NCBI GenBank assembly: GCA_030613615.1
Contig: JAUWLR010000001.1
Coordinates: forward strand, 1 to 58,296
DNA from: Candidatus Eiseniibacteriota bacterium
GTDB lineage: Bacteria > Joyebacterota > Joyebacteria > Joyebacterales > Joyebacteraceae
Length of the DNA stretch: 58,296 nt
Reading direction: 5' to 3'
The position numbers and the translations under genes are program-made. Below are positions 37,379 through 53,551 of the stretch, piece after piece. The first letter of the stretch is position 1, and each line of letters begins with the position of its first letter. The notes below the pieces were generated by a model, which was not told the origin of the DNA, searched no databases, and saw only the letters and a list, made by a program, of their open reading frames with translations.

Positions 37379-38182
37379 ATGGAACCCGCCAGTGGCGTTA
37401 CGAAAAGGTTGGTGGAGCGGCTGAGCATGGCGAAGGACTTGGCCGTTCTCACCGGCGCGGGAGTGTCTCAGGAGAGCGGCGTCCCGACGTTCAGGGGCGA
37501 GGAAGGGTTGTGGAAGCAGCACCGGGCCGAGGAACTCGCGACGTGGAGGGCGTTCGAGAGTGACCCCGGGCTGGTCTGGAGTTGGTACGACTACAGGCGT
37601 CAGCTCGTCTCAGACGCCGAGCCCAATCCGGCCCACAGAGCCATCGCCGAGCTGGAAGAGGGCTACCCCCACTTCTCTCTCATTACTCAGAACACCGATG
37701 GACTCCACGACAGGGCCGGTAGCTCGGCCCCGGTCGAGCTTCACGGCAACATCTGGAGAGCGCGCTGCACGCTCGAGCAGACGGTCTGCGAGCTGCTGGA
37801 GAGCCCGCTACCCGACGTGCCGCCGCACTGCCCTACGTGCGGGTCACTCCTTCGGCCGGACGTCGTGTGGTACGGCGAGCCGCTGCCGATGGACGCGTAC
37901 GAGCGCTCCCACCAGATCGCGGCGCGTTGCGACGCAATGCTGGTCATCGGCACGTCGGCCGTTGTCCATCCGGCGGCGTCGCTCCCGCTGGTTGCCAAGC
38001 ACAATGGCGCCTTCGTGGTCGAGGTGAACACGGCATACACACCCATATCCGCCCTAGTCGATGCCACCTTGCTCGGGAAGGCCGGCGACCTCTTGCCCGA
38101 GATCGCTCGCCGAGTCCTGGAAGCCGTGGGGAACCGCGGCAGCGGGGCCGCGAACCCCGTGAGCGAGAGCGCGCCCGCTTGA
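37379..38182 (+). CDS. cobB: NAD-dependent protein deacylase (Sir2/CobB family)
   Basis: 'LTGAGVSQESGVPTFRG','ITQNTDGLH','ELHGN', Zn ribbon 'C...CPTCGSLLRPDVVWYGE','VIGTS'. Confidence 0.85.
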   Translation: MEPASGVTKRLVERLSMAKDLAVLTGAGVSQESGVPTFRGEEGLWKQHRAEELATWRAFESDPGLVWSWYDYRRQLVSDAEPNPAHRAIAELEEGYPHFSLITQNTDGLHDRAGSSAPVELHGNIWRARCTLEQTVCELLESPLPDVPPHCPTCGSLLRPDVVWYGEPLPMDAYERSHQIAARCDAMLVIGTSAVVHPAASLPLVAKHNGAFVVEVNTAYTPISALVDATLLGKAGDLLPEIARRVLEAVGNRGSGAANPVSESAPA

Positions 38183-38277
38183 CCGGTCCCTCATGCTCTG
38201 ATAGCCTCTAGCATGTGTCACGGCCGTGTGGAGAACCGGCCGTGCATTCCCGTATCCAGGCAACGAACCGTACAACG

Positions 38278-38359
38278 CGTTCACCCGGGGCGCCCTCAGC
38301 GGGCTTCCGGAGACATCCCGTTCACCCGGGGCGTCCCCAGCGGGGTCCCGGAGATATCG
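38278..38359. repeat. Two tandem copies of a 41-bp unit immediately upstream of the giant gene
   Basis: cgttcacccggggcgccctcagcgggcttccggagacatcc / cgttcacccggggcgtccccagcggggtcccggagatatcg. About 35/41 positions are identical by hand alignment. The repeat ends 30 nt before ATG 38389. Confidence 0.7.
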
Positions 38360-38388
38360 CACTGGACACCATTCCTAAGGAAATCGAC

Positions 38389-41300
38389 ATGCGAAGATAC
38401 GCTGCTGCCGTCGCCGTTCTTCTTCTGCTGGTGGCCGCATCCGCCCTGTCGAACAGCTACAACAGGCCTACGATCGACGGGCGCGTGACCACCCTGGAGG
38501 GCGATTGGGAAAGCGATGAGTGGGTGGGGCGGGACCCTCGCGATGACTGCCGCCACTACCCGGACCAAGGGGACCTCAGAGATCTCTGGGTCACCTGGGA
38601 CGAGACGAATCTGTACTTCGGAGTCAGGACCGTCAATGGTCCGGCCGACAACGGCTACGTGCTCTATATCGATGAGGACGCTCAGGAGGGCATCACCGGT
38701 GCCACCGACTTCACGAGCGCCGCTTTCTATCCGAGGCGTGTGACCTTCAGCACCATGGGAGTCGACGCGATATTCGGGGTCTGGAAACTCGAGCCGGGCA
38801 CCGAGGGGATCCGGCACTGCGACGACCTGTCGGTCATGTCTCCCATCGAGGGCGCGTACGCCCAGATGAACCCGGGGATCAAGCACTACGAGGGCGTCAT
38901 TCCTTGGGACGGGCTCTACGGGCTCGGCGAGGGTGTGGTTCCCGAGGGAACGATCCTCCGGTTCGTCGCGGCTGTTGTGGGCGTAGACAACACGGGAGCA
39001 TTCGACGCTCTGCCCACAACGACATCCGGGATGGAGTCCGACCCCTCCACTCCAGACGGAGCCTATACCGATCTGGATCTCTTCATCGAGATACCAGTGG
39101 ACACAGACGAGGACGGAGTGCCCGACACCAACTATCCGCCGGGGGGCAGCATCTCCGGGACAGTGGCGCTGGGCGACACAACCGACCACGAGACGGTCGT
39201 TACCGTCACTGCCTATCAGGGCGGAGAGGCCATCTGGAGCGACAGAACGCCGGCCGGTGGAGGCGAATACGAGATCGAGCGTCTTGCGCCCGGGATCTAC
39301 GACGTGAAGACGAACGCCTTCTCATACCTGCCGGTCACGATTGAGGGCGTCGCGGTCGCCGACACTAGCGAGACCGCCGGTATCAACTTCCTGCTCGAGA
39401 AGGTCACCGGGCGCGTTGAGGGTGAGGTGGTTCTGGACGGTGGCCCCGCCGTTGATGTCACCGTGGGCGTCTACGACGCGACGACGGGCGAGATGGGCGG
39501 CGAGGGTGAGGTGGTTGTCGAGGGTGGAACGGGCGCCTTCTCGATTGGTACCGTCCTCGACGGGACCTGGCTCGTTCTGGCGGAGGGGAAGGGGTACGTT
39601 GAGGCCGACACCATGGCCACGATCACAGACGGCGACACGACCAACGTGGGGCTCCTCACTCTTCCTGTCGTTGTTGCGACGAAGTACGGCTTCTCCGATT
39701 CTCTGGGGAACAGCATCTACGGCGCCGGGACGACCGTCAGCCTGCCGGACAGTGGAATCTACTACTACGCGCGGGCGTGGGTGGAGCCGCGCGACGATGG
39801 CGATCGAGTGGCCTACTGGGACTACGACGCCCAGGGCGGGATAGTGCTCAGCGCGACGAAGCTGGACCCGGCCTATGATCCGACGGGCACGGTGGTCTTG
39901 GCGGACACGAGCGAGGTGCCCCTCCCGGATGCCACGTTGACGTCGGACATGTTCGACGACGGCAGGGCGCCGTTCCTGACGGCAGACGATGCGATCGAGG
40001 TCGTGAGGGTCTTTGCGACGAACGCTGCGCTGCGTGACACGCTCCAGGGTGTGCTCGAGGTCGGCATCGCCCCGCCCGCTCCCGTCAGGCTGGCGTTGTC
40101 CACGGACGTGTCAACCATCGCGGCCGGCGTGGGCGTCGCGACCATATCGGGACAGCTCGTTGACGCAAGCAGCAACGCGGCGAAGGTGCCGGGTATTATC
40201 GCGAACATGACCGCATGGGGCGCGGGAGGAGGATTCAGTGTGCCCTCGCCCGAGACCGATGCGGACGGCAAGTTCGCGGTCGACTTCTCCGGGACGGTCA
40301 CGGGCACGGCCTACGTGAGCGCCGCCATCGATCCGGGCTCGGCGTACCCGAACCTCGAGGTGGACGAGCTGACCATCGTGCTGGAGCCCGACGTGGCGGC
40401 CTTCGTGGAGATCGAGCCCGATCCCAGGGCGCTGAGAGCCGGAGACCTGTCGACGCTCAGCGCGCAGGTCGTCGACGCCTGGGGCAACAACGTCGCGCTT
40501 GGGGACCTGTCCATAGCACTTGTGGCATCACCGCCCTTGCTTCTTGCCTCGATCGACTCGCCGATAGTCACGGACGGGACCGGCTGGGCAACGGGCGAGA
40601 TCGAAGCCGGAAGCACCTACGGCACCGTTGAGATCTCGGGCGCCGCCACGGGCGTCGAGGTCGAGACCATCTACGTGCCCATCGACGCGACCGTCAGGGC
40701 CATGGACGAGGTCGCGCCTGAAACGGACCCCGACCACAACAGCGACCCGGGCATGGACCTCACTGTGCTCAGGATCACGAACAGCGCCGACGAGCTGATC
40801 GTCGGCCTGATCTTCGACTCCGAGTGGAACGGCGCGCACCTGGGCATCTGCATAGAGGCCAATGGAGATGCGGCGGGAGCGCCGGCGGAGCCGTTCCGCT
40901 TCCCGATCACCTACGGACACGCGCTCCTCCCGGACTACGCCTTCACCTACAAGTTCTACGACCAGAGCTACGCCGATTTCCGCCGGTGGAACGTCGGCGC
41001 GGGAGCCTGGCAGTTTCTCGATTGGGACACAGACAGTTGGGTGAACGAAGACGCATGGGTGATCGGCGTCGAGGCCCAGGACGGGCAGATGGACCGGGAC
41101 CAGTGGGACGTCTACTTTCGCATTCCGTTCTCAACGATCGGTGTGTCGGTGGGAGACACCGTGCGCGTCCAGGGCTACACGATGCAGGAGGTCCCTGGAG
41201 ACCCGGACGCCGTCAAGTACACTGCACTGGACTCGACGCCGCACGATGCTACGCACGACATGTTGCCGGACGTCGGGGACTGGTGGGAGACCGCGACTGA

Positions 41301-43746
41301 CGCAGTCACGCTCTCGAACTACCAGACCTACGTTCTCAGGGCAGAAGGTCTGGCGCCTGCCCTCTCCGAAGGTGAAGCAGATCCCTCGCCGGCGCAGCCC
41401 GGGGACCTCGTCACATACACGGTCCAGGTCACGGACACGGGCGGGGGCGTCGGCGACGTGTTCCTCAACCTCTCGGACATTGGTGGTGACAGGTTCGTCC
41501 GGATGACGGACGACGGGGTCGATCCGGATGCAGCCGAGGGCGATGGCGTGTACACGACCTCAGAGGTGCTTTCCTCCTCCGCATCCGACGGCGATCACAC
41601 GGTCACGGTCACCGCTCGCGACGGGGAGAACATCGCTGCCGCCACGCTGGACATCGACATCAACGCGAACAACCCCGCGACCGCGATCCGCCAGTTCGAC
41701 GACCCGGAGTTCGACGACCACGGGCCGAACGGGGGAACTGATCATCCCGGCGAACAGATCGAGGGACTCTACTACAGGTACCCGACGAATCTCGTGTTCC
41801 TTCCGGGGTCTTTCGACATTACCGGGGTGGAGATATTCGCGGACGGCGACCGCATCGTCTTCCGCACGCACATTCGCGACCTGGTCTATCATCAGGACCC
41901 GTCGGCCGCGGACTGGGGTGCGCCCCAGCCGAGCCAACAGACGTGCGACAACCCCAATCGGACCGACCTCAACCTGCAGAAGCTCGACATCTATATAGAT
42001 GCGTATGAAGGAGAGGGCGCGACCAGCGGTTTCCCGAACAGGTACGTCGATATCGCGACAGTCGACGCCTGGGACTACGGTATCTCTGCCGAGGGCTGGG
42101 GCAAGTGGTTCGTCGTCTCGAACAGCTCAAACTCCACGGCGAGCTGGGACCTCTACAAGAACGACAGCGACATCTCAATGTGTGACGACCACATCGAGAA
42201 CTACATCGACGTCAGCATCGACCGCGCGCTGCTCGGGCTTGACCCGGACAACACGGACAACGACGACATCCTGTCCTGGGACATCATCGTCTGCCTGTCG
42301 TCGCACGATGGCGAGACGAACGACCAGAATCTCGGAGGGATCCGCTGGGTCAACGGCACCACCAGCGAGTGGCAGATCGGCGGCGGTCTGGACAGCGAAG
42401 GGGGGAGGGACAGGGACCCCAACATCATTGACGTAGCGATCTCGCCCGGTGAAGGACACGAGCCCGGGCGGACCCAGGAGGAGATGCTCGACTACACCAC
42501 CACGGAGGCGGAGGCTAGGTTCGACAACAACCGGGTGGCGTGCGTGCTCGAAGCTAGCTTCGCCGTCGACACCGCACCGCCAGTCATCTACGACTTCACG
42601 AGCGACCCCGAACTCGCGTTCATCCCGTGGGTGGCGCTGGACGGCGCTCCAGCCGTCATGTGGACGACCATCACCGACGTTACCGGCATCGAGACCGCGC
42701 GCTTTCACTGGCAGCCCGTTGGACTTCCGACCTTCCGGGATTCGGTGGACATGGTCAACCTGATCGGCGACATCTGGGCGGCCGACATCCCGCGCGCCGA
42801 CGTCACGGCCGGCACGAACGTCGTCGGCCTGAACAAGGTGGGCGACGCGCGTGTGCTCGAGGGTTGGATCTACGCTGCCGACTCGTCGGAGGCCGAGAAC
42901 GAGATACAGAGCGCTCCCCTGACATTCGGCATCCCCGAGCCATGGGCGGGCTCGCAGACGCTCTCTCTACCCGACACACTGCATGAGAACGACGAACGTC
43001 TCCTCGTCTTCCAGGACGGAACCGTGCTGACGGTGGACGGCGGTGACCTGCCGGGCGAAGGCGGCGCCATGGAGCTCACCGTCACTCCCATATCTGAGAG
43101 TCTGGTGGACGTCTCCGATATCCGTGACGACATGGAGTTCGTCAGCGTCGCCAGAGACCTGGCGGCGCAGTACGCGGACGGGACGGCCGTGTCGCTCGTC
43201 GGGAAGCCGAGTCTGACACTGCACTACCCGCAGTACGAGGTAGGAGGGCTCGACGAGGAGGACTTCGGCCTGTTCGGGTGGATCCCGGAGACGGAGCGGT
43301 GGATTCTCAAGGGAGGCGCCGGCAATCCTCCCGGCAACACCGTGACCGGGGAAATACTCGACTTCGGCACCTACGGCATCTTCTACTGGGAGGCGCTGGA
43401 CGTGGGTTCCGCGAGAGGGCTGTCGGGCGTGCTGACCGAGCCGAATCCATTCTCGCCCAACGGTGACGGGCTATACGACGAGACCGTTGTCACGTTCTAC
43501 CTCGGCCGCGAGGCCGACTACGTCAACATCGAGTTCTACGACCTCGAGGGCCGGCTGGCCCGCAGGCTCGTGTTCAAGGGACCGACCGACTACATGGGGC
43601 GATCCCAGCATACCATGACCTGGGATGGAACGGACGTGGACGGCAACGTCGTGCCATACGGCATATATGTGATGCGTGTTGAGGCAAGGTTCAAGACCGA
43701 ACCGACGTTCGAGCGAGTCAACAGACCCGTCGTTGTCATCAAGTAG
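38389..43746 (+). CDS. Giant (1785 aa) secreted multidomain surface protein with glycan-binding-type modules and a FlgD-Ig/CHU_C-type C-terminal sorting domain
   Basis: Signal peptide 'AVAVLLLLVAASALS'. Two CBM9/DOMON-like modules ('TIDGRV...DLWVTWDETNLYFGV'; 'LTVLRITNSADELIVGLIF'). CarboxypepD_reg-like units ('YEIERLAPGIYDVKT'). Big-like units ('ISGQLVDASSN','LSAQVVDAWGNN'). Glucodextranase-C-like module 'DDPEFDDHGPNGG...YYRYPTNLVFLPGSFDITGVEIFADGDRIVF'. Tail 'NPFSPNGDGLYDE...WDGTDVDGNVVPYGIYVMRV'. I recognise no catalytic domain. Confidence 0.85.
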   Translation: MRRYAAAVAVLLLLVAASALSNSYNRPTIDGRVTTLEGDWESDEWVGRDPRDDCRHYPDQGDLRDLWVTWDETNLYFGVRTVNGPADNGYVLYIDEDAQEGITGATDFTSAAFYPRRVTFSTMGVDAIFGVWKLEPGTEGIRHCDDLSVMSPIEGAYAQMNPGIKHYEGVIPWDGLYGLGEGVVPEGTILRFVAAVVGVDNTGAFDALPTTTSGMESDPSTPDGAYTDLDLFIEIPVDTDEDGVPDTNYPPGGSISGTVALGDTTDHETVVTVTAYQGGEAIWSDRTPAGGGEYEIERLAPGIYDVKTNAFSYLPVTIEGVAVADTSETAGINFLLEKVTGRVEGEVVLDGGPAVDVTVGVYDATTGEMGGEGEVVVEGGTGAFSIGTVLDGTWLVLAEGKGYVEADTMATITDGDTTNVGLLTLPVVVATKYGFSDSLGNSIYGAGTTVSLPDSGIYYYARAWVEPRDDGDRVAYWDYDAQGGIVLSATKLDPAYDPTGTVVLADTSEVPLPDATLTSDMFDDGRAPFLTADDAIEVVRVFATNAALRDTLQGVLEVGIAPPAPVRLALSTDVSTIAAGVGVATISGQLVDASSNAAKVPGIIANMTAWGAGGGFSVPSPETDADGKFAVDFSGTVTGTAYVSAAIDPGSAYPNLEVDELTIVLEPDVAAFVEIEPDPRALRAGDLSTLSAQVVDAWGNNVALGDLSIALVASPPLLLASIDSPIVTDGTGWATGEIEAGSTYGTVEISGAATGVEVETIYVPIDATVRAMDEVAPETDPDHNSDPGMDLTVLRITNSADELIVGLIFDSEWNGAHLGICIEANGDAAGAPAEPFRFPITYGHALLPDYAFTYKFYDQSYADFRRWNVGAGAWQFLDWDTDSWVNEDAWVIGVEAQDGQMDRDQWDVYFRIPFSTIGVSVGDTVRVQGYTMQEVPGDPDAVKYTALDSTPHDATHDMLPDVGDWWETATDAVTLSNYQTYVLRAEGLAPALSEGEADPSPAQPGDLVTYTVQVTDTGGGVGDVFLNLSDIGGDRFVRMTDDGVDPDAAEGDGVYTTSEVLSSSASDGDHTVTVTARDGENIAAATLDIDINANNPATAIRQFDDPEFDDHGPNGGTDHPGEQIEGLYYRYPTNLVFLPGSFDITGVEIFADGDRIVFRTHIRDLVYHQDPSAADWGAPQPSQQTCDNPNRTDLNLQKLDIYIDAYEGEGATSGFPNRYVDIATVDAWDYGISAEGWGKWFVVSNSSNSTASWDLYKNDSDISMCDDHIENYIDVSIDRALLGLDPDNTDNDDILSWDIIVCLSSHDGETNDQNLGGIRWVNGTTSEWQIGGGLDSEGGRDRDPNIIDVAISPGEGHEPGRTQEEMLDYTTTEAEARFDNNRVACVLEASFAVDTAPPVIYDFTSDPELAFIPWVALDGAPAVMWTTITDVTGIETARFHWQPVGLPTFRDSVDMVNLIGDIWAADIPRADVTAGTNVVGLNKVGDARVLEGWIYAADSSEAENEIQSAPLTFGIPEPWAGSQTLSLPDTLHENDERLLVFQDGTVLTVDGGDLPGEGGAMELTVTPISESLVDVSDIRDDMEFVSVARDLAAQYADGTAVSLVGKPSLTLHYPQYEVGGLDEEDFGLFGWIPETERWILKGGAGNPPGNTVTGEILDFGTYGIFYWEALDVGSARGLSGVLTEPNPFSPNGDGLYDETVVTFYLGREADYVNIEFYDLEGRLARRLVFKGPTDYMGRSQHTMTWDGTDVDGNVVPYGIYVMRVEARFKTEPTFERVNRPVVVIK

Positions 43747-43759
43747 CAAGGACCTGTCT

Positions 43760-44641
43760 ATGTTGAGAACCACGGCAAGCACGGTCGTCGCACTCCTTCT
43801 TCTTGCCGGGGCGGTTCAGGCGAACTTCCTCGAGACGGAGCTTGGGGCGAGAGCGATGGGTATGGGCGGCGCCTTCGTGGCCGTCGCGGACGACGTCACT
43901 GCGCTGCACTGGAATCCGGCGGGGCTGGCAGGACTGCCTGGAGTTCAGGTCTTCGGAATGCGGACCAGCGTCTACAGCGTCGACGGTCTGTCGGAGGACG
44001 CGGTTCTGACGTCGTATGGAACGGGAAGCATGGGGTACGGCCTGGGGTGGATGAGAACGGGGGCGGCGGACCTCTACAGCGAGGACACGCTCCTGGCGGG
44101 CTACGGTACGGAAACGCCGATCGACGGCCTGGCCGCGGGCATTACGCTCAAACGTTTCTCCGTCGAGGCGCCTGGATACGAGTACTACAACGACCCGGCG
44201 TTCGCCGCGGGCGGCGACGACGCCTACGCCGCCGACCTGGGCGCACTCTATCGACGTGGGAAGTGGAGCGTCGGCGCCACGGTCAGGAATCTGGGAGAGC
44301 CCAAGCTGCAGCTGCTTTCCACGACCGCGGAGGAGGACCTCGACCCGATAATGAGCGAGCTGCGCCTCGGCGGGACATACCTGTTCCGCGACGTCATGCT
44401 GATGACGGTCGAGTGGCGCGCGCCGAGGGAGGCCCCCGAGTACTACGAGAACCAGTACAGCATCAATTTGGGGAGCGAGGTCTGGTTCTACGATGCCTTC
44501 GCATTGAGAGCGGGCATGAACCGCGACAGGATCACCGCGGGGCTGGGCATAAGGACGAAGCACATTCAGATAGACGTCGCCCTGCTGTCGGAGCGGAGGA
44601 TCGGGAGTCTCTACAGGTTGTCGGCGATCTTCCTGTGGTAG
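43760..44641 (+). CDS. PorV/PorP-SprF-like outer-membrane beta-barrel
   Basis: Signal peptide. 'GARAMGMGGAFVAVADDVTALHWNPAGLAG' is the hallmark N-terminal motif of PorV/PorQ/UPF0164-type barrels. Alternating beta pattern. C-terminal 'LSAIFLW'. Confidence 0.7.
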   Translation: MLRTTASTVVALLLLAGAVQANFLETELGARAMGMGGAFVAVADDVTALHWNPAGLAGLPGVQVFGMRTSVYSVDGLSEDAVLTSYGTGSMGYGLGWMRTGAADLYSEDTLLAGYGTETPIDGLAAGITLKRFSVEAPGYEYYNDPAFAAGGDDAYAADLGALYRRGKWSVGATVRNLGEPKLQLLSTTAEEDLDPIMSELRLGGTYLFRDVMLMTVEWRAPREAPEYYENQYSINLGSEVWFYDAFALRAGMNRDRITAGLGIRTKHIQIDVALLSERRIGSLYRLSAIFLW

Positions 44642-44714
44642 GAGGGTTGCGGCAGGGGGCCCCGCGAGGGGCGCCGCGCACTGACCGGCGTTACAGATTC
44701 CGAAGGAGCTTCCG

Positions 44715-46310
44715 TTGGTTCGAACCAAGAGAATAAGAGGTCGCCACCTCTCGGTCCTCCTGCTCGCGAGTCTGATGCTCGCGTCGTGGGTCGCTCCCGC
44801 CTCAGGCATAACGACCCTGGACGGCTACTCCTCGTTCATGGCCGAGCTTCGGAACAGCGGTGGAGGAGACCCCAGCTGGGAGCTCGGCAATCCTGAGCTC
44901 CTGGTTGAGTTTCGTCTCAAGTCGAGCCCGTGGCAGGACATCGACAGCTTCCTGAAGGTCGCGGGGGAGTCGGACACGTGGGTGGATCGGGGCGAGGATG
45001 AGGTGGTCAAAGAGACGAAGTTCTTCTTCCAGGAGGCACACGTCCGGTTCCGCGCGAGCAAGTTCGAGACGCACCTCTTTGCGGGGCAGGACAGGTTCTG
45101 GCTGAACGAGCCGCTGCTGCAGATCGTGCACTCGGACCAGGTGAAGCACGACGACTGGGGCCCGAAGGCGCAGGGAATCAGGCTCGACTTCTGGGACCTC
45201 TACGGATTCTCGGGCGCGGCCTTCGTGAGCGAGAGGAGCGACTACAAGTTCATGGACTGGGCGAGGCTCTCCTCGGCCGAGCAGGGGTACTATCCGGGTT
45301 CGGCGGAGGGCGACACGATCACGAGCAGCACCTCCGACTATCGCGGCTTCAGGGTCAACAGGGCGCTGCTGTCCGATCAGTTGCACGTCGGGACGACCTA
45401 CGCGCGGAAGGACTACGAGGATCTCAACTCGCCCTACTGGGGCGATCGCAGCTTCTTCGACGAGACCATCGCCTTCGACATCGAGATGGCCTTGGGCGAT
45501 ATCGTGCCCGCGCTGACGCGCTTAGGACGTGTCACGTGGGTCTCCGAGTACGGCCGGACACTGTCGGGGCATCTGTGGACCGCTGAGGACCCGGGCGTCA
45601 ACGGTTTCAAGACGGAGGTCAGGGATGTCCGCGTGGGGCCCTTGAGCTTCATGGGTTCCTGGGAGGCGTACGGGAAGGACTTCTACAATCAGGGTCTGGC
45701 GCACGGCGACCAGCAGAACCTCAACGACTACACGCAGTACTACGCCGAGGGGCACTACCGCATTCCCGCCAAGGCCGTCAACCTCAAGGGCTGGGTCAAG
45801 CGCGCCGAGCCCCGGAGTTCCGTGTCGACCAGCTACGCCCGGTCGACGGGCATCATCGCCGAGTGGGGGAGCGAGGCCTACATCGAGTTTCTCAACGGAT
45901 TCACTGGCAAGACGGAGTACAAGGTCTACCGGAACAAGAGCGGCATCTGGCCGAACCTCTTCTTTGAGCTGACCGGTGAGAACCGACTGGTCAAGCTTCG
46001 CACGCAGTTCCGCATCAAGGACATCGACTCTGACTACGAGGTGACCGCGTACGGCTTCGAGGCCAACGTCAACCTGAGCGACGTCTGGAAGTTCTACGCG
46101 CGAGTGATGAATATCGATGAGGCCACCGAGTCCAGGCAGACCGCTTTCGCGCAGCTCAGGTACCTGGGGTGGCAAAGCGCCGAGTTCTTCGTCGAGTTTG
46201 GCAACCCGGACCACAGCAACGACCTGGTGAACGACGACGACTTCGCAACGCACGGCTCGAACGCGATCACGGAGCCGGTGTTCAAGGCGTTCGTGAGGAT
46301 CTACTACTAA
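44715..46310 (+). CDS. Predicted outer-membrane beta-barrel of an unrecognised family
   Basis: TTG start 6 nt after GAAGGAG. Signal peptide 'LLLASLMLASWVAPASG'. Amphipathic beta-strand periodicity throughout. Terminal 'FKAFVRIYY' (aromatic beta-signal). Paralogous blocks shared with 46395-48476. Confidence 0.6.
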   Translation: MVRTKRIRGRHLSVLLLASLMLASWVAPASGITTLDGYSSFMAELRNSGGGDPSWELGNPELLVEFRLKSSPWQDIDSFLKVAGESDTWVDRGEDEVVKETKFFFQEAHVRFRASKFETHLFAGQDRFWLNEPLLQIVHSDQVKHDDWGPKAQGIRLDFWDLYGFSGAAFVSERSDYKFMDWARLSSAEQGYYPGSAEGDTITSSTSDYRGFRVNRALLSDQLHVGTTYARKDYEDLNSPYWGDRSFFDETIAFDIEMALGDIVPALTRLGRVTWVSEYGRTLSGHLWTAEDPGVNGFKTEVRDVRVGPLSFMGSWEAYGKDFYNQGLAHGDQQNLNDYTQYYAEGHYRIPAKAVNLKGWVKRAEPRSSVSTSYARSTGIIAEWGSEAYIEFLNGFTGKTEYKVYRNKSGIWPNLFFELTGENRLVKLRTQFRIKDIDSDYEVTAYGFEANVNLSDVWKFYARVMNIDEATESRQTAFAQLRYLGWQSAEFFVEFGNPDHSNDLVNDDDFATHGSNAITEPVFKAFVRIYY

Positions 46311-46394
46311 CGGAAGAAAGCTGGGGCCGGTCGACCCGGTCCACGAGAATCGCTTGAGGGAGGCGTGATAGGCGCCCCATCCGGAGAAGAATCG

Positions 46395-48476
46395 ATGAAG
46401 CACAGAGGCATCGCACGTGTGGCACTCTTGGTAGCCGTTGCTCTTCTCGCAGCCGCGCCCGCGCGGGCCGGTGTGTCCAGGGTGGACGGTGGCATAGAGT
46501 TCACCTTCGACCACCCGAGCGCGGGCAGCGTGAGCCTGGCCGGCGACTTCAACGGCTGGGACATGAACGCCGAACCGCTCACTCAGGATGAAGACGGGGT
46601 CTGGAGGGTGGTTGTTGACCTGGGGCCGGGCGAGTACGCGTACAAGTTCGTCGTCAACGGCTCCGAGTGGATAGCCGACCCCGAGAATCCGAGGGTGGTC
46701 GGCGACTTCGGGAACTCAGGGATCACGATCAACGACGACGGCGATCCGGTGTCAGGAGAGGACGCGGACCCCATCTCGAATACGTCCGTGAACTCCAGGG
46801 TGCAGCTGAACGGCTGGTATCGGGCGACGTTCGACTGGCAGGCGGACATGCCGAGCGATTCCCGGTGGCGGCTCACCAGGCCGGCGCACGAGTTCTACAT
46901 CGCCGTCAATCCGACCGTGACGTCCGTTGCTTCCGGAAACGCCACGGTGCGCCTTTCGACGGGCGCCGGCGATATCAAGGAGATATCGGCCGACATCTAC
47001 AGCGGCCACCTCACGCTGGAGGGCGGCCCGTTTTCCGTGACGGGGTTCTACAACGAGGAACGGCTGCAGTACGATAACCCCCTCGAAACCGTGGGGCACA
47101 TCGACCTCGACAACACTATCCCCGAGGAGCACATCCCGTTCGGCAGGGGTGCGCAGGGCATCATGGTCGACACGGAGTTCTGGGACTTCACGCTGAACGC
47201 CGCATACGCAAACATCTACGACTACTACATTATGAACGACCCGAGCGTATACGACAACACGGAGACCGATCTCCTGGCCGCGCGTCTCAAACGGCCCGTC
47301 GGTCCAGTGACGCTCGGAGCGACGTACACGAGCTGGAGAGACAGCTGGTGGATAGGCTTCGAGGGCACGAACACGAGCCCCCACATCGACCAGTACCTCG
47401 CTGACAATCCCGAGTCTCAGAGCAGCTGGTTCGAGCTCTCCAACACCGAGACCTGGATCGGCTTCGACGCCGACATGCCCGTCGTGAGTGACCTGCTCTA
47501 CGCAAAGGCCGAGTACTCACTCTACAGCTACGACAGCCTCTTCGACGTGGGCAACAAGGAGAGGATCGAGGGCGAGGACTACTCAAACGGCGCGATCAAT
47601 GTCCCCGTCGGCAGCATGGATGGCTGGGTCGCGACGGGCGTCCTGGAAAGCTCACCGCTCCCGTACCTGGACCTGAGATTCCAGGTCACGAAGACCGCGA
47701 TCGACTCCATGAGCTCGGGTGAGCAGTACGTGGCCTACGGCTTCCCTTCCTGGCTGGCCATATGGGAAGGCGTGTTCACCGAGGTCAAGGGCACCGGTTC
47801 GCCGCTCTCGGTGAACGTCTTCGGTCAGGCGCCGGAGCGGGACGAACTCGAACTCAAGTTCGACGCCGACTTCGGGTTCGGCATCTTCGACGTGGGATTC
47901 GAGTACGACCGCGCCGACTTCGAGTGGCGCTACCACGAGGAGATCGAAGGCCACTTCGGTTCATTCGACACCTGGAAGGAACGCATCTCGAGGCTTTCGG
48001 TGACCGGCGGAGCAGACGTAGCCGAGAGAATTCGCGTCGGTTTCGCCACCGAGCGGATCTCGGGCTACTACGACGTCGACTACCTCGAGGATCCGAGCAG
48101 ATTTGAAGCCATAGTGACCGCGGACGTCGGGCTCTGGCAGGACTGGAGCGTGCTGCTCGACGTCAGGAGCGCCTCGTATAAGAACATCCCACGCTTCGCA
48201 CAGTCGACTCCCGACTCGCTCCACTACGAGGACGAGGCTTTCCTGGCTCCGTACGTCGCCCTGGTCTACAGCCCGCGGGAGAACATCGAGGTCAGAGTGG
48301 GCTACGGTGTCAGCCCGACCAACTACGTGGACACGCCGGTCGAGGGCAGAGGGGACGGTCGCGGGCGGTGGGTCTCCGAGTACCTGTGGAACCGCAGCGA
48401 CCACGACGGCCTGGATGCCGAGAAGGCGCTGGCGGACGCTAAGACGATCGGTGTCATGGCGGTCATAACGTTCTAG
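46395..48476 (+). CDS. CBM48 (AMPK-beta/glycogen-binding) module fused to a predicted outer-membrane beta-barrel
   Basis: Signal peptide 'VALLVAVALLAAAPARA'. CBM48 'IEFTFDHPSAGSVSLAGDFNGWDMNAEPLTQDEDGVWRVVVDLGPGEYAYKFVVNGSEWIADPENP'. About 560 aa of beta-strand-rich sequence ending 'IGVMAVITF'. Confidence 0.7.
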   Translation: MKHRGIARVALLVAVALLAAAPARAGVSRVDGGIEFTFDHPSAGSVSLAGDFNGWDMNAEPLTQDEDGVWRVVVDLGPGEYAYKFVVNGSEWIADPENPRVVGDFGNSGITINDDGDPVSGEDADPISNTSVNSRVQLNGWYRATFDWQADMPSDSRWRLTRPAHEFYIAVNPTVTSVASGNATVRLSTGAGDIKEISADIYSGHLTLEGGPFSVTGFYNEERLQYDNPLETVGHIDLDNTIPEEHIPFGRGAQGIMVDTEFWDFTLNAAYANIYDYYIMNDPSVYDNTETDLLAARLKRPVGPVTLGATYTSWRDSWWIGFEGTNTSPHIDQYLADNPESQSSWFELSNTETWIGFDADMPVVSDLLYAKAEYSLYSYDSLFDVGNKERIEGEDYSNGAINVPVGSMDGWVATGVLESSPLPYLDLRFQVTKTAIDSMSSGEQYVAYGFPSWLAIWEGVFTEVKGTGSPLSVNVFGQAPERDELELKFDADFGFGIFDVGFEYDRADFEWRYHEEIEGHFGSFDTWKERISRLSVTGGADVAERIRVGFATERISGYYDVDYLEDPSRFEAIVTADVGLWQDWSVLLDVRSASYKNIPRFAQSTPDSLHYEDEAFLAPYVALVYSPRENIEVRVGYGVSPTNYVDTPVEGRGDGRGRWVSEYLWNRSDHDGLDAEKALADAKTIGVMAVITF

Positions 48477-48478
48477 CG

Positions 48479-49294
48479 ATGGAGGTTCGGAGGATCGTGA
48501 GAGAAACCACCAACAGACGGAGCCGCCGCGGGACGCTTCTGGTCGTGACGCTGGCGGTAGCACTGACGCTCAGCTCGTGCGCGGGCACACTGGACTGGAT
48601 ACAGGACCGGCTGCCACCACCGTCGGAAGTGGAAGGCGGGATCATGTTCCGCTACCACGCGCCGTCGGCGCGCCTGGTGACGTTGGCGGGCAACTTCAAC
48701 AACTGGGGCGGCACGCAGGGCGGCGGACGATACGACCCGAGCATCAATCCGATGAGCGACACCAACGGCGACGGCACGTGGACCCTCGTTGTTCCCCTTC
48801 CACCCGGTCGCTATCAGTACAAGTTCGTGATCGACGGTGGCGTGGGGTGGGAGCAGGACCCCAACAACCCCGACAAGGCGATGGAAGGCGGGATCGAGAA
48901 CTCGCTCGTCGTGGTTCCCCCGACGGTCTCGTACGATTTCGAGCACATCACGGGCACGGTCATTGGTGAGAGCATCAGAGAGGGACTGCTGAAGCGCCCG
49001 GGCGACGCGCCCACTGCAGCCGAGCCGACCGTGACCGCGGAAGGCGTGGAGTTCGAGGTCGATTTCCCGGATGCCGGCGCGGTCTATCTCGCGGGAACGT
49101 TCAACGACTGGGATCCGGACGCACACCCGCTAACGAAGGGTGACGATAGCCTGTGGCGGGTGACCATTGAGCTCGACCCGGGAGAGTATTTCTACAAGTT
49201 CGTCGTCGACGGCACATGGATGGAAGATCCGGGCAACCCGGAGAGCGTCGACGACGGCTACGGCGGCGTCAATTCAATCCTGACCGTTGAGTGA
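48479..49294 (+). CDS. Lipoprotein with two CBM48 glycogen-binding modules
   Basis: Lipobox 'LTLSSCAG'. 'MFRYHAPSARLVTLAGNFNNWGG...WTLVVPLPPGRYQYKFVIDG...WEQDPNNP' and 'VEFEVDFPDAGAVYLAGTFNDWDPDAHPL...WRVTIELDPGEYFYKFVVDGTWMEDPGNP'. Confidence 0.8.
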   Translation: MEVRRIVRETTNRRSRRGTLLVVTLAVALTLSSCAGTLDWIQDRLPPPSEVEGGIMFRYHAPSARLVTLAGNFNNWGGTQGGGRYDPSINPMSDTNGDGTWTLVVPLPPGRYQYKFVIDGGVGWEQDPNNPDKAMEGGIENSLVVVPPTVSYDFEHITGTVIGESIREGLLKRPGDAPTAAEPTVTAEGVEFEVDFPDAGAVYLAGTFNDWDPDAHPLTKGDDSLWRVTIELDPGEYFYKFVVDGTWMEDPGNPESVDDGYGGVNSILTVE

Positions 49295-49369
49295 GATCTT
49301 TGGTCGGATCAGCCCTGACCGTTGAGTGAGATCTTTGGTCGGATCAGTCCTGACCGTTGAGTGAGATCC
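49279..49369. repeat. 35-bp tandem repeat, about 2.6 copies, starting inside the last codons of the CBM48 lipoprotein gene
   Basis: The unit cctgaccgttgagtgagatctttggtcggatcagN occurs at 49279, 49314 and 49349. Each copy re-creates the '..LTVE-stop' end of the CDS. Confidence 0.85.
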
Positions 49370-49431
49370 ATCGGTTGGAAGCGGCCCCCTGATCTCTCGC
49401 GGGGGTCGGTGACAGGAGGCCGTGACCGCCG

Positions 49432-50430
49432 ATGCCACGCCACGATGGTCGGACGCGCAGGCACGAACGTCCTGGATCGGACGGGCCCGGTGTGAACCCG
49501 GGACCCAGGCCGCGTCTCTCCAGGCGAACGGGCGACTCGGCCACCTCCTACGCGTTTCTCGCGCCGTTCCTCATCACCTTCGCCGTCTTTCTGGCTTTCC
49601 CGGTCTTCTACTCGCTCTATCTGGCGCTGCACCAGGTGCCCGCTGACTCCTTCGACATATTCGGGGGGCTCGAGTTCGTCGCCTTCAGGAACTTCGCGAA
49701 GCTCTTCGCCGACACCAAGTTCTGGTGGTCGGTGCTCATGACTCTCTACTATGCGGCACTCATCATCCCAGCAGGGATAGTGGCGTCGCTCGTGCTCGCG
49801 CTCCTTCTCAACAACAGGCTCAGGTTGGTCGCGGCCTACCGGAGCGCGTTCTTCATGCCCTACGTGCTGGACATGCTGGTCGTGGGCATCGTCTGGACGC
49901 TGATATACAGCCCGCACGTGGGGATTCTCACGCGCATCTTCGAAGCAATAGGCATCACGACGTTCTCGGAGCGCGGGTTTCTGGGGATGCCCGCCTCCGC
50001 GATGCCGTCGGTCGTGTTCGCGAACGTGCTCAAGGGCGCGGGGTTCGGAATGATCCTGTACCTCTCGGCGATCCAGAACATCCCGCAGTCGCTGTACGAG
50101 GCCGCCGAGATCGACGGGGCCACGCCGTGGAAGCGCTTCACCTCGATAACGCTCCCGCTGGTGAAGCCCATCACACTCTTCATGGTCATCATAGGGACCA
50201 TCGGCGCCCTGAACGCGTTCGCCGAGGTCTACGCAATGACGGGCGGCGGGCCGAACATCGACGTCGGCGGCCGCGCGCTCGGGGCGACGTGGGTGACGGG
50301 GTACTACGTTTTCGACACGTTCTACACGCAGTTCAAGCTCGGATACGCCGCTGCGATGTCGTACGTGCTTCTGGCGCTCACGCTCATCATTTCGCTCGTC
50401 AACAGGCGCTTCCTCAGGGCGGAGGTGTAG
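49432..50430 (+). CDS. ABC carbohydrate transporter permease (CUT1, MalF/UgpA-like)
   Basis: Six hydrophobic segments. EAA loop 'EAAEIDGATPWKRFTSITLPLVKP'. GTG 49492 is an alternative start. Confidence 0.85.
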   Translation: MPRHDGRTRRHERPGSDGPGVNPGPRPRLSRRTGDSATSYAFLAPFLITFAVFLAFPVFYSLYLALHQVPADSFDIFGGLEFVAFRNFAKLFADTKFWWSVLMTLYYAALIIPAGIVASLVLALLLNNRLRLVAAYRSAFFMPYVLDMLVVGIVWTLIYSPHVGILTRIFEAIGITTFSERGFLGMPASAMPSVVFANVLKGAGFGMILYLSAIQNIPQSLYEAAEIDGATPWKRFTSITLPLVKPITLFMVIIGTIGALNAFAEVYAMTGGGPNIDVGGRALGATWVTGYYVFDTFYTQFKLGYAAAMSYVLLALTLIISLVNRRFLRAEV

Positions 50431-50432
50431 AG

Positions 50433-51260
50433 GTGGCACGCACGCGCGCGGCGGTTCTCAGGAGGACGCTTCTCTACACCGGCCTGACGGTCGCGGCGAT
50501 CGTAGTGCTGTTCCCGTTCTTCTGGATGGTCGTGACGGCGTTCAAGGAACCGGGTCAGGCCTTCAGCCAGGAGATTCTTCCCTCCAGTCCGACGCTCGAG
50601 AACTTCAGGCGCGTCCTCACCGACTACGGGTTCGCGCGCTACTTCGTGAACAGCGTCGTCGTGGCGACCTCGGCCGCGCTTTTCGCGACGTTCTTTGCCA
50701 CGATGGCGGGCTACGTCTTCGCGAAGAAGGAGTTCATCGGGCGTGACAAGGTGTTCGGGTTTCTGCTCGCGTCGCTCATGATCCCCGGGATGATGTACGT
50801 GGTGCCGCAGTTCGCGATTATCAACTGGCTCGGGTGGATGAACAGCTACAAGGCGATGATCATCCCGCACCTCGCGAACGTCTTCGGCCTCTTCCTGATG
50901 AGACAGTACATGATGACCATCCCCTCGGAGCTTCTGGAGGCGGCCAAGATCGACGGTGCGGGGGAGTGGCAGGTCTTCAGGACCATCATGGTGCCGCTGT
51001 CCATCCCGATCATCGCGACGCTCTTCCTGCTGACGTTCCAGTTCCACTGGAACAACTTCCTCTGGCAGCTCATAGTGACGAACGTCGAGCGCCTCTACAC
51101 CGTTCCGGTGGGGCTCGCGATGTTCAAGAGCGCGCACGAGGAGTTGTACACATTGAAGATGGCAGGTTCGTGTATCTCTGTGCTGCCGATCGCCGCTCTC
51201 TTCTTCTTTGCTCAGAGGTACTTCATTGAGGGGATGACGATGGGGGCGCTCAAGGGTTAG
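50433..51260 (+). CDS. ABC carbohydrate transporter permease (CUT1, MalG/UgpE-like)
   Basis: GTG start 2 nt after the upstream stop. 'LFPFFWMVVTAFK' and EAA loop 'EAAKIDGAGEWQVFRTIMVPLSIP'. Confidence 0.85.
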   Translation: MARTRAAVLRRTLLYTGLTVAAIVVLFPFFWMVVTAFKEPGQAFSQEILPSSPTLENFRRVLTDYGFARYFVNSVVVATSAALFATFFATMAGYVFAKKEFIGRDKVFGFLLASLMIPGMMYVVPQFAIINWLGWMNSYKAMIIPHLANVFGLFLMRQYMMTIPSELLEAAKIDGAGEWQVFRTIMVPLSIPIIATLFLLTFQFHWNNFLWQLIVTNVERLYTVPVGLAMFKSAHEELYTLKMAGSCISVLPIAALFFFAQRYFIEGMTMGALKG

Positions 51261-51311
51261 GCAGCGGAGCGCGGCCGGACGAGCGGGAGCTCGAAGCGAA
51301 AGGGAACAGAC

Positions 51312-52550
51312 ATGAGAAGAACGCTGTCTATAGGAGGGGCGCTTCTGGTAGCGTGCGCGTTTGCGCTCTTGGCCGGCTGCGGAGGAGGGCAGGACGCCGC
51401 CGCGACACTTACGATCTGGCAGACTTACAATGACGAAGAGTATCCGGTCTTCAAGGAGATCGTCGAGAGCTTCAGAGCGGCGCATCCGGACATCACGATC
51501 GACGTGGTCAGGCTCCCCTTCGCCGGCGCCGAGCCCAAGATCCAGACGGCTCTCACAACGCGCACCGAGCCCGACATCGCAAGGGTGGACGTCTCGTTCC
51601 TGGCGAAGCTCGCGGGCAAGAACGCGCTTCTCGACCTCGGTCCGTACATCCCTTCTGAGTTCCGCGACGAGATCCTCCCCGTGGCGCTCTCGAGCTGCTA
51701 CTACGACGACACGCTGTGGGGGCTGCCGGACCAGACCAACGGTCTCTGCCTCTTCTATAATAGAGAGCACTTCCGCAGTGCCGGGTTGGACCCCGAGCGT
51801 CCCCCGGTGACGTGGGACGAGCTGATATCGTACGGGAGGAAGCTGACGAACAGGGACGAGGGTGTCTTCGGCATCGGCCTCTCCAACTCGCTCTGGTGGA
51901 CGCTCCCGTTCTTCTACACGCACGGCGCCGATTTTCTCTCCGAGGATGGCACGCGCTGCGTGCTGAACAGTCCCGAGGGTATCGCCGCATTCCAGCTCAA
52001 GGTGGACCTGTACCAGAAACACGGCATCGAGGGTGGCGCGTGGCGCGCGGGCGGCATCATCCATGACCTGGGTTTCCAGAACGGACGATACTCGATGATC
52101 CTGAACGGGCCCTGGGCCGTAGAGAGCCTCAAGCGCACGGGCATCGATTTCGGGGTCGGTCTGATTCCCGCGGGACCGGTCGGTACGGCGACCAACGTTG
52201 GCGGGAACAATCTGGTCGTGTTCAGAAGCACGAAGCGGCCCGAGCTCGCCTCCGAGTTTCTGCGGTTCGTGGCCAGCGAGGAGACGCAGCGCATGTGGGC
52301 GTCGAGGCTCGGCCAGATCCCGGTGAACGTCAAGGCCTCGGACGCCATCACGTCCGAGGAGCATCCGTACCTCGCCGTCTTCGTCGAGCAGATGGAGACA
52401 GCGATCCCGCGCCCGCAGGTGATGGGCTACCCCGAGATCGAGAACCTGATGAATCCGGAGATGCAGGCCGCTCTGGACGGCACAAAGTCAGTTGAGGCGG
52501 CGCTCAACTCCGCCGTCGCGGAGATAGACAAACTGCTCGCGAGCGATTAG
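51312..52550 (+). CDS. ABC transporter extracellular solute-binding lipoprotein (family 1, sugar)
   Basis: Lipobox 'ALLAGCGGG'. 'LTIWQTYNDEE','GLPDQTNGLCLFYN','NGPWA' are typical of MalE-like sugar-binding proteins. Confidence 0.85.
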   Translation: MRRTLSIGGALLVACAFALLAGCGGGQDAAATLTIWQTYNDEEYPVFKEIVESFRAAHPDITIDVVRLPFAGAEPKIQTALTTRTEPDIARVDVSFLAKLAGKNALLDLGPYIPSEFRDEILPVALSSCYYDDTLWGLPDQTNGLCLFYNREHFRSAGLDPERPPVTWDELISYGRKLTNRDEGVFGIGLSNSLWWTLPFFYTHGADFLSEDGTRCVLNSPEGIAAFQLKVDLYQKHGIEGGAWRAGGIIHDLGFQNGRYSMILNGPWAVESLKRTGIDFGVGLIPAGPVGTATNVGGNNLVVFRSTKRPELASEFLRFVASEETQRMWASRLGQIPVNVKASDAITSEEHPYLAVFVEQMETAIPRPQVMGYPEIENLMNPEMQAALDGTKSVEAALNSAVAEIDKLLASD

Positions 52551-52602
52551 ATTGTGAGCGGTGAAACCATCCGGCATCAGGCAGAGCGCGGCCCGGGCCG
52601 GA

Positions 52603-52659
52603 CAGACGCACACGGGTGGACAGGCGCACACGGGTGGACAGACGCACACGGGTGGACAG
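52603..52659. repeat. 18-bp tandem repeat, about 3.2 copies (cagRcgcacacgggtgga)
   Basis: Copies at 52603, 52621 and 52639, with one A/G difference. They lie in the spacer between the binding-protein gene and the next gene. The track ORF start at 52616 ('MDRRTRVDRRTRVDR') is just this repeat translated. Confidence 0.85.
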
Positions 52660-52714
52660 AACTGAGACGAAACTTAGGGAACGCTCAGGCGTTGCTGCAT
52701 CCAAGGGGGCAGAT

Positions 52715-53491
52715 GTGAAGCTGTTGCGCGGGGCTGTTGTGCTCCTTGCGTTTCTTGCCGTCGCGATTCCGGCGGTGGCCGAGGAACTGGCGAGATGGGA
52801 CGACCCGGTCGGAGACGACACCGGTGACGGGGACTACACGTATCCTCTGAACGAGGCGTTTGGAGAGGGTGGACAGGCGGACCTTCTGTCGTTCGCGATC
52901 GAGAAGGAGAACGGTTCGCTGATCTTCGAGCTCACGATACGCAACCTCGTCGACCCGTGGAACGTCGGCAACCGGCTGACCATGGTCGCGGTCGCCATCG
53001 ACACGGAGGAGGGCGGCGACGAAGAGCTTCGGCGCAACGCGAACGCGCGTCTGGCCGAGCCGTCCGAATATCAGATCTTCGTGGCCGGAGAGACCGTGGA
53101 GGTCATAGACATGTACGCCGAGCGTGTTGACATCGGCGCGAGTGTCGAGACGGACATGGAGAAGGGCACCATCAGAATAAGTGTTCCGATCGACGCCCTC
53201 GACGGCGCGGCGGCCGACTGGCGATTCACGGTGGCGGTCGGGCTTCAGGACGACTACGGCGCCGGGGGGTTAGGTGACTTCCGCGAAGTCAAGAAGGTCG
53301 AGGAGGAGTGGCGGGGCGGCGGCGGTGACGACCTGTCGCTCGATACGAATGTGTACGACATCATTGTGCCCGAGCCGAAGAAGATCCTCTTCATCTTCGG
53401 CGGGGGGCAGAGGTCGCAGGAAGAGATTCTGGGCGACTGCAGCCTGGAGACCGGTGAGCTGGTAGTACTCCCGGCTCTGGCACTGGAATAG
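52715..53491 (+). CDS. Secreted protein consisting of a glucodextranase C-terminal-like (Glucodextran_C) module
   Basis: GTG after AAGGGGG. Signal peptide 'AVVLLAFLAVAIPAVA'. 'WDDPVGDDTGDGDYTYPLNEAFGEGGQADLLSFAIEKENGSLIFELTIRNLVDPWN' parallels the module in the giant protein. Confidence 0.65.
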   Translation: MKLLRGAVVLLAFLAVAIPAVAEELARWDDPVGDDTGDGDYTYPLNEAFGEGGQADLLSFAIEKENGSLIFELTIRNLVDPWNVGNRLTMVAVAIDTEEGGDEELRRNANARLAEPSEYQIFVAGETVEVIDMYAERVDIGASVETDMEKGTIRISVPIDALDGAAADWRFTVAVGLQDDYGAGGLGDFREVKKVEEEWRGGGGDDLSLDTNVYDIIVPEPKKILFIFGGGQRSQEEILGDCSLETGELVVLPALALE

Positions 53492-53524
53492 AGCGGACAG
53501 AAGACTCGCAGGGCTTCTCATCGG

Positions 53525-53551
53525 TCGCCCGGCGGCTGCATGGCCGGGCGA
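53525..53551 (+). terminator. Hairpin downstream of 52715-53491
   Basis: tcgcccggc / gccgggcga forms a 9-bp stem with a 9-nt loop. No U-tract. Confidence 0.35.

Follow-up and report, generated by a model that had tools for sequence, protein, structure and literature searches.

A giant modular protein of Candidatus Eisenbacteria, predicted to reside on the cell surface and probably to capture alpha-glucan for a non-SusC/D uptake system

Positions 38389–43746 of the forward strand of a 58,296-nucleotide stretch of DNA from a Candidatus Eiseniibacteriota bacterium (NCBI GenBank assembly GCA_030613615.1, contig JAUWLR010000001.1, positions 1 to 58,296; the whole of this stretch is called the window) encode a protein of 1785 amino acids (aa), referred to below as the giant protein. 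We consider it probable that the giant protein is a non-catalytic, elongated surface protein that captures alpha-glucan for an uptake system other than SusC/D, that it is exported in the manner of a type IX secretion system (T9SS), and that it is tethered by a private outer-membrane barrel of the PorV family. Non-catalytic surface proteins that bind glycans are already known, as are T9SS cargo-barrel pairs. What is new is the combination of the two in an uncultured phylum, with modules outside the tested families of carbohydrate-binding modules (CBMs), with neither a lipid anchor nor SusC/D, and with a barrel of the PorV branch. An earlier note on this DNA had listed, among several options, a giant non-catalytic glycan scaffold or adhesin. 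That option is the one favoured here, because the protein is a chain of beta-sandwiches, because its N-terminal tip module and its Glucodextran_C module are both tied to alpha-glucan enzymes, and because the gene stands in a conserved operon for alpha-glucan uptake. All genes and domains that are given window coordinates below lie on the same (+) strand.

The longest frame of the giant gene begins at a GTG at 38215; the likely start is the ATG at 38389, which has an AAGGA Shine-Dalgarno sequence 9 nt to its 5' side, and the stop codon is at 43744–43746. The open reading frame (ORF) is real, as judged from its translation and from the conservation of its homologues. There are 54 of these, mostly full-length and colinear, with 35–86% identity; several are named Candidatus Eisenbacteria at the source, and one is annotated as a ‘glucodextranase DOMON-like domain-containing protein’. 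A six-frame search of species-representative genomes of Candidatus Eisenbacteria found orthologues in 30 of 31 genomes and in all eight of the eight genera. The gene is essentially single-copy across the phylum's genomes, and it is a core gene of the phylum. The protein begins with a Sec signal peptide (aa 1–20, 38389–38448), recognised in the sequence by its MRR n-region, its hydrophobic core and its A-S-A motif. The N-terminus reads MRRYAAAVAVLLLLVAASA, with LS following the A-x-A cleavage site, and there is no Cys (lipobox) in the signal region as read from the sequence.

The fold of the giant protein was modelled with AlphaFold2 (AF2) from a 47-sequence family alignment. Two models jointly span the entire chain, with a mean predicted local distance difference test score (pLDDT) of 86.6 for aa 1–1029 and of 82.9 for aa 1000–1785. 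Except for the signal-peptide helix, formed by aa 4–17, and a few very short helices, the models are all beta-strand and are made up of about twelve sandwich-type modules. Foldseek comparison of both halves with the PDB gave matches solely to chains of immunoglobulin-like (Ig), macroglobulin (MG) or fibronectin type III (FN3) domains; complement C3, alpha-2-macroglobulins, C5a peptidase (its FN3 tail), PorU, PorZ, EA1, Sap, SbsB and titin are among them. A glycosidase fold is absent from the top 50 PDB matches of each half. Pfam and NCBIfam scans found no glycoside hydrolase (GH), polysaccharide lyase or other catalytic family in the protein; the NCBIfam scan returned weak Ig-type matches only, and a sequence search of the PDB returned FlgD and chance matches only. 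As far as is detectable, the giant protein is non-catalytic, and the earlier statement that it carries no GH13, GH15 or other active-site signature is borne out by all of these approaches.

The earlier note had left room for a novel catalytic domain in some 500 unassigned residues, roughly aa 1290–1690. A family-less stretch does exist there, but it is really about 300 residues long (aa 1377–1675, 42517–43413), because the adjoining Glucodextran_C module extends to aa 1373. It consists of a short linker with two small helices, followed by beta-sandwich domains; the AF2 model is all-beta with pLDDT mostly 80–94, and profile searches of the PDB and Pfam returned no match. With a mean identity to homologues of 43–72%, mostly 43–65%, the stretch is one of the less conserved in the protein, below Glucodextran_C and the C-terminal tail. 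The proposed catalytic domain thus finds no support, and a hidden enzyme in aa 1290–1690 was rejected as the leading reading on grounds of fold and conservation.

The Glucodextran_C module, a member of the DOMON-like superfamily, occupies aa 1096–1376 (41674–42516). PF09985 matches aa 1100–1373 with 102.4 bits (cut-off 22; E=3e-29), and with 104 bits in the genome scan. A profile of this region, built for the family, matches domain C of the Arthrobacter glucodextranase (1UG9/1ULV, residues 792–999; E=4e-7), so that the glucodextranase-C-like module noticed earlier is confirmed. With 72–83% mean identity to homologues, Glucodextran_C is, together with the tail, the best-conserved part of the giant protein, and some 80 of its residues are invariant, with many acidic or aromatic ones among them. 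The characterised homologues of the module are domain C of the Arthrobacter globiformis GH15 glucodextranase (1UG9/1ULV) and the ‘D-domain’ of a Microbacterium GH65 dextran debranching enzyme (PMC10074034). Deletion of the D-domain from the GH65 enzyme raised the Km for alpha-glucans 3-fold and left small substrates unaffected (PMC10074034). As in the GH15 and GH65 enzymes, the module here is linked to the use of alpha-glucans and to enzymes at the cell surface; unlike in those enzymes, it has no attached catalytic domain, being embedded in a scaffold and also present as a stand-alone protein.

The gene for the stand-alone protein, at 52715–53491, had been picked out in the earlier note and is real (PF09985 E=7e-37, 128 bits). 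The genome has no copies of Glucodextran_C other than the two in this locus. The stand-alone gene lies directly after the gene for a solute-binding protein of an ATP-binding cassette (ABC) importer, and its product has a type-I signal peptide. Because it has neither a lipobox nor a sorting tail, the product is probably periplasmic, which suggests a periplasmic role for the Glucodextran_C family in holding glucans or dextrins. The two copies are distant paralogues, about 30% identical in short blocks, and their relation is below tblastn detection. A recent duplication was rejected on the strength of this low identity.

The conservation of Glucodextran_C might also be taken as the mark of a cryptic, undescribed alpha-glucan catalysis, located either in the conserved, Asp/Trp/His-rich Glucodextran_C cassette or in an unclassified beta-sandwich module. 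The numerous invariant acidic and aromatic residues would suit such an activity, the biochemical role of the family is unproven according to PMC10074034, and three modules of the giant protein match no known family. In the characterised enzymes, however, Glucodextran_C is an accessory beside a separate catalytic domain. Further, all modules of the giant protein are Ig-size beta-sandwiches, no glycosidase fold is among the top structural matches, and the region suspected in the earlier note is one of the less conserved. We regard cryptic catalysis as very improbable.

A second link to alpha-glucan enzymes comes from the tip module (aa 22–252, 38452–39144), an unclassified beta-sandwich of about 230 aa (AF2 pLDDT about 90) with the motif D-x-D-x-DG-x-PD at its end. 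An exhaustive HMMER search found relatives of the tip module in about 104 cluster representatives, in three contexts. In the first, the module forms the N-terminus of giant scaffolds. In the second, it is joined to a FlgD_ig/CHU_C tail in small proteins of 330–420 residues, such as P0078. In the third, it is part of secreted GH13 alpha-amylases, where it lies behind the GH13 catalytic domain and He_PIG Ig domains and ahead of a Por_Secre_tail. The tip module of the giant protein is homologous to the module between the GH13 domain and the T9SS tail in P0067 and P0090 (E=2e-15 and 3e-10). P0090 matches solved alpha-amylases with E=1e-53 and P0067 with E=5e-32, and P0077 retains the amylase C-domain. 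When 18 divergent copies of the tip module were aligned, a common signature was seen that ends in D-x-D-x-DG-x-PD. That amylases carry the tip module as an accessory gives an independent line of evidence that its role is connected with alpha-glucans, and makes the module a candidate for a new starch-associated CBM family. Stand-alone copies of the module, with about 48% identity, are present in several genomes of the phylum.

Module b (aa 775–992, 40711–41364), another unclassified beta-sandwich, of about 215 aa, opens a cassette of the order module b, Ig domain, Glucodextran_C. In a distant clade of homologues of 2184–2281 aa (P0047–P0051) there are two Glucodextran_C modules, the cassette having been duplicated N-terminally; this duplication singles the cassette out as a functional unit. 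Both the tip module and module b had been described as CBM9/DOMON-like. They are indeed real beta-sandwiches of about 220 aa, but neither has a CBM9, DOMON or other Pfam or PDB match, even at E≤10, and CBM9_1 (PF06452) matches three other genes of the genome and not the giant gene. When compared by hhalign with the genome's own CBM9 domains, the tip module gave a weak local match (E=0.004, 49 columns, probability 8%) and module b a weak match at the C-terminal CBM9 motif (E=0.0008, 35 columns, probability 24%). The CBM9 profile matches of the two modules lie at positionally equivalent motifs, and the modules themselves have a weak colinear relation (hhalign E=0.048); hhalign found no relation of either one to Glucodextran_C. 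The CBM9/DOMON-like label is plausible but unverified.

The remaining modules between the tip and the tail are mostly of recognisable spacer types. Two CarboxypepD_reg-like beta-sandwich spacer domains (aa 253–427, 39145–39669; PF13620 and the AF2 strand pattern) follow the tip module. After them comes an unclassified beta-sandwich domain (aa 428–566, 39670–40086), with AF2 strands over aa 432–560 at pLDDT 82–94 and with no Pfam family match. Next are two Big_1/Invasin_D3-like Ig domains (aa 567–770, 40087–40698; PF09134/PF02369, AF2 pLDDT about 90–95). The CarboxypepD_reg-like and Big-like modules proposed earlier are thus found as two stretches each; the Pfam matches of both kinds are below threshold in the giant protein itself and above it in homologues. 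The Ig-like domain of the cassette (aa 993–1095, 41365–41673) was recognised by its AF2 strands and by a weak likeness to choice-of-anchor-X, DUF11 and PKD domains. All of these matches are sub-threshold: NF041940 at 23.1 bits (cut-off 25), TIGR01451 (NCBIfam) and PKD (Pfam).

The giant gene opens a same-strand cluster in which it is followed, in order, by genes for a barrel, for proteins of 531, 703 and 271 aa, for permeases, for a solute-binding protein, for the stand-alone Glucodextran_C protein and for an amylo-alpha-1,6-glucosidase. The three protein genes after the barrel span 44715–49294; the 703-aa protein has an N-terminal CBM48 and the 271-aa protein is a double-CBM48 protein (Pfam CBM48/AMPK1_CBM; PDB CBM48 matches). 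The 531-aa (44715–46310) and 703-aa (46365–48476) proteins are weakly similar to each other (E=8e-5 over 91 residues) and have no family match beyond the CBM48 of the latter. Two ABC sugar permeases are encoded at 49432–50430 and about 50433–51260 (Pfam BPD_transp_1 twice), and the solute-binding protein at 51312–52550 (Pfam SBP_bac_1/8). The amylo-alpha-1,6-glucosidase, a GDE_C debranching enzyme, is encoded at 53919–56057 (PF06202 E=2e-66; TIGR01561). This gene order is preserved in the Eisenbacteria genome L016, where the giant orthologue is merely 59% identical. PPDK and Sir2 housekeeping genes adjoin the giant gene and are likewise syntenic. In L016 the locus goes on to a GH57 enzyme of 815 aa that bears CBM48 modules (L016:25126-25295); at positions 53919–58222 of the window its place is taken by the debranching enzyme (GDE_C) and by a protein of 722 aa without a family match, so that the enzyme end of the locus is variable. 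Elsewhere in the genome a secreted enzyme of the GH13 alpha-amylase family (G000:C13:2630-5197) combines a signal peptide with a classical T9SS-type tail, and is probably a secreted partner enzyme of the locus. Further GH capacity consists of a second secreted GH13 gene, on C119, and three GH57 genes.

The neighbourhood and the distribution of the giant gene bear on two other explanations. According to one, the giant protein is an S-layer-like coat protein or a general adhesin with T9SS-type export; its glucan-gene neighbourhood would then be historical, and Glucodextran_C would serve in attachment to the cell envelope. A core, single-copy gene next to syntenic housekeeping genes suits a coat protein, and the S-layer proteins EA1, Sap and SbsB are among the Foldseek matches. 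T9SS-dependent S-layers exist, namely TfsA/TfsB of Tannerella forsythia (PMC4175972), and Pfam calls Glucodextran_C an ‘SLH-like’ binding module. The matches to EA1, Sap and SbsB, however, reflect a generic likeness of Ig chains, with TM-scores of about 0.1, and Pfam and NCBIfam scans found no SLH domain or self-assembly motif. The tip module also occurs in secreted GH13 amylases, and the genome's only other Glucodextran_C gene is in the same operon, beside the gene for a sugar-binding protein. Further, the operon is tight, with a gap of 13 nt from the giant gene to the barrel gene and CBM48 genes thereafter. A coat protein or adhesin is, in our judgement, unlikely.

The other explanation holds that the giant protein is a docking scaffold that recruits secreted amylases or pullulanases, as in the Ruminococcus bromii amylosome, with direct binding of substrate being secondary. 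The many non-catalytic modules without a known partner could be docking sites, secreted GH13 enzymes are encoded elsewhere in the genome, and a GH57-CBM48 enzyme has been added to the locus in related genomes. Against this, Pfam and NCBIfam scans gave no cohesin or dockerin-like families, there are no repeated identical docking modules, and the GH13 enzyme on C13 has a T9SS tail of its own, so that it needs no scaffold for surface display. We give docking of enzymes as the main function little credence, less than we give the coat protein, and keep to the capture of alpha-glucan as the preferred reading.

The evidence for T9SS-type export begins with the C-terminal sorting domain (aa 1676–1785, 43414–43743), which is FlgD_ig/CHU_C-like and carries the motif NPFSPNGDGLYDE. 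Of the terminal FlgD-Ig/CHU_C-like domain claimed earlier, the first half holds exactly at the limit, FlgD_ig matching aa 1700–1766 at 27.0 bits, which is the Pfam cut-off; the second half is sub-threshold, CHU_C giving 17.9 bits (cut-off 27). The tail has 67–84% mean identity to homologues. When the last 110 residues were searched against the genome by tblastn, 73 matches were obtained, 72 of them outside the giant gene, at 25–40% identity; the tail of the GH13 amylase is included. Nearly all of the approximately 70 other tails are of the classical ‘PNPFNPxT...RKMVLLK’ kind. The tail of the giant protein is the only terminal one with a PNGDG motif, and it has an extra terminal strand; its match to the tail region of PorU is weak (E=0.019). 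T9SS components are encoded in the genome, all scoring above curated cut-offs (SprA 482 bits, PorU 528 bits and PorV 236 bits), with the canonical PorV gene directly after PorU. The claim that the protein is sorted is therefore supported, and can be sharpened: the tail belongs to the genome's population of T9SS-type tails, and the protein is paired with a private barrel of the PorV/PorQ family. A full-text literature search for Eisenbacteria and type IX secretion together gave no paper.

The cognate barrel gene (43760–44641, 293 aa) begins 13 nt after the stop codon of the giant gene. Its product matches NF033709 with E=1.7e-23 and 83.7 bits; as a member of the PorP/SprF family (TIGR03519) it reaches 27.5 bits, short of the cut-off of 90.55. 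The barrel gene was found directly after the giant orthologue in six of six loci examined across genera, with 69–93% identity, and is better conserved than its cargo. PorV-family paralogues number at least eight in the genome. A barrel gene of the PorV/PorQ family also comes directly after each of three further ORFs with T9SS tails (G000:C162:584-5741, C155:564-3381 and C114:33938-37167). From the paralogues and these further pairs, private barrels look like a general habit of this organism.

In Bacteroidota, PorV and PorQ anchor PorU and PorZ of the T9SS at the cell surface (PMC5562754), type-B cargo binds cognate PorP-like barrels (PMC9143113), and final localisation is set by specialised shuttles (PMC12618676). 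By analogy, the giant protein and its barrel may work like these cargo-barrel pairs. They resemble PorZ-PorQ and PorU-PorV of P. gingivalis (PMC5562754) in that a T9SS-tailed surface protein goes with a PorV/PorQ-family barrel that would tether it, and the C-terminal half of the giant protein has PorU and PorZ of the attachment complex among its structural matches. They differ in that the cargo is a glucan-locus protein rather than a component of the secretion system, and in that the barrel is a dedicated paralogue. With the type-B pairs, namely SprB-SprF, the Fjoh pairs and PG1035-PorP (PMC9143113, PMC12618676), they share a cargo gene followed directly by its own small barrel gene, co-conservation of the pair, and a tail with a PNGDG-type motif and a weak CHU_C match. 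The differences are that CHU_C is below its cut-off (17.9 vs 27), that the barrel is PorV/PorQ rather than PorP/SprF, and that the host is outside Bacteroidota. Since both CHU_C and PorP/SprF are below their cut-offs, the giant pair fails the type-B/PorP class on both HMM tests.

A working scheme for the capture of alpha-glucan can be put together from these features. The giant protein would be exported by the Sec system by means of its signal peptide; its C-terminal FlgD-Ig-like domain would then direct its passage across the outer membrane by a T9SS-type translocon. The tail would stay bound to the private PorV/PorQ-family barrel, in a non-covalent tether like that of PorZ to PorQ and of type-B cargo to PorP-like barrels. 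At the membrane-distal end, the tip module and the Glucodextran_C cassette are predicted to bind alpha-glucan chains (starch, glycogen or maltodextrin), with the CarboxypepD_reg and Ig modules presumably serving as spacers. Separately secreted enzymes, for example the T9SS-tailed GH13 amylase on C13, might cleave the captured polymer. The fragments would be passed to the CBM48-bearing, putatively outer-membrane proteins, from these to the periplasmic binding proteins, and finally to the ABC importer and debranching enzyme of the operon.

SusE and SusF of the Bacteroides thetaiotaomicron starch system are non-catalytic surface glycan-binding proteins in a glycan-uptake locus. A multimodular surface glycan-binding protein for laminarin from Christiangramia forsetii, Cf-SGBP, has been described as a ‘sugar-trapping antenna’ (bioRxiv 10.1101/2023.09.07.556657). 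Like SusE/SusF and Cf-SGBP, the giant protein is non-catalytic and elongated, has Ig-like spacers and candidate binding modules, is encoded within a glycan-uptake locus, and is proposed to trap sugar at the cell surface. Unlike them, it is without a lipoprotein anchor, is 3–5 times larger, and would be anchored by a T9SS-type tail and a private barrel; its candidate binding modules are outside every CAZy CBM family tested here. Unlike Sus-type loci, its locus is without a SusC/SusD pair.

Several observations weigh against a secreted, tethered, glucan-capturing protein and temper our confidence in it. Direct sugar binding by Glucodextran_C is undemonstrated (PMC10074034), and the tip module, module b and aa 1377–1675 match no characterised family, their roles being assigned from context alone. 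Whole-chain Foldseek cannot resolve single domains, and could therefore have missed a small all-beta catalytic fold. The near-universal, single-copy conservation of the gene would fit a structural coat protein too. The tail misses the curated models of T9SS tails, with no match to Por_Secre_tail or TIGR04183 (type A) and with CHU_C (type B) sub-threshold, and the PorV_fam score of the barrel is slightly below the cut-off (83.7 vs 90). Finally, the models for the GldL/GldM (PorL/PorM) motor, TIGR03517, TIGR03513 and PF12081, are silent in this 94.5%-complete genome; these models are Flavobacterium-trained, and control genomes are likewise below cut-off. The motor may be highly divergent, or else the translocon may draw its energy in another way.

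A bolder version of the proposal, which we advance tentatively and would not yet rely on, is that the giant protein serves as receptor arm in a starch-import machine of the outer membrane which is distinct from SusC/D and as yet undescribed, and that this machine is a core trait of Candidatus Eisenbacteria. In this version the tip module, present also on T9SS-tailed GH13 amylases and in minimal module-plus-tail proteins, and the Glucodextran_C cassette would be two new alpha-glucan-binding CBM families, and the private PorV paralogue would be the tether. If this were true, the specialisation of shuttles for particular cargo, known only for type-B tails in Bacteroidota, would also have arisen on the PorV branch, in a different phylum that possibly has no recognisable PorLM motor. 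The Eisenbacteria are uncultured, and their feeding is known from gene lists only. The giant protein, encoded at the head of an operon that almost all genomes of the phylum have kept, provides a concrete and testable hypothesis of how starch-like polymers might be captured without SusC/D. It also offers two or three candidate carbohydrate-binding modules, namely the tip module, module b and Glucodextran_C. The pairing of T9SS-type cargo with a private PorV-family barrel outside Bacteroidota is relevant to the question of how proteins reach the place of their final residence in type IX secretion.

A scan for promoters and terminators gave no above-chance sites, and a sigma-70 consensus scan of 37900–53700 gave no promoter-like site 5' of the giant gene. 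Two tandem 41-bp GC-rich direct repeats (cgttcacccggggcg...ccggaga) are present at 38278–38359 and end 30 nt 5' of the ATG; they may represent an operator or a 5' leader.

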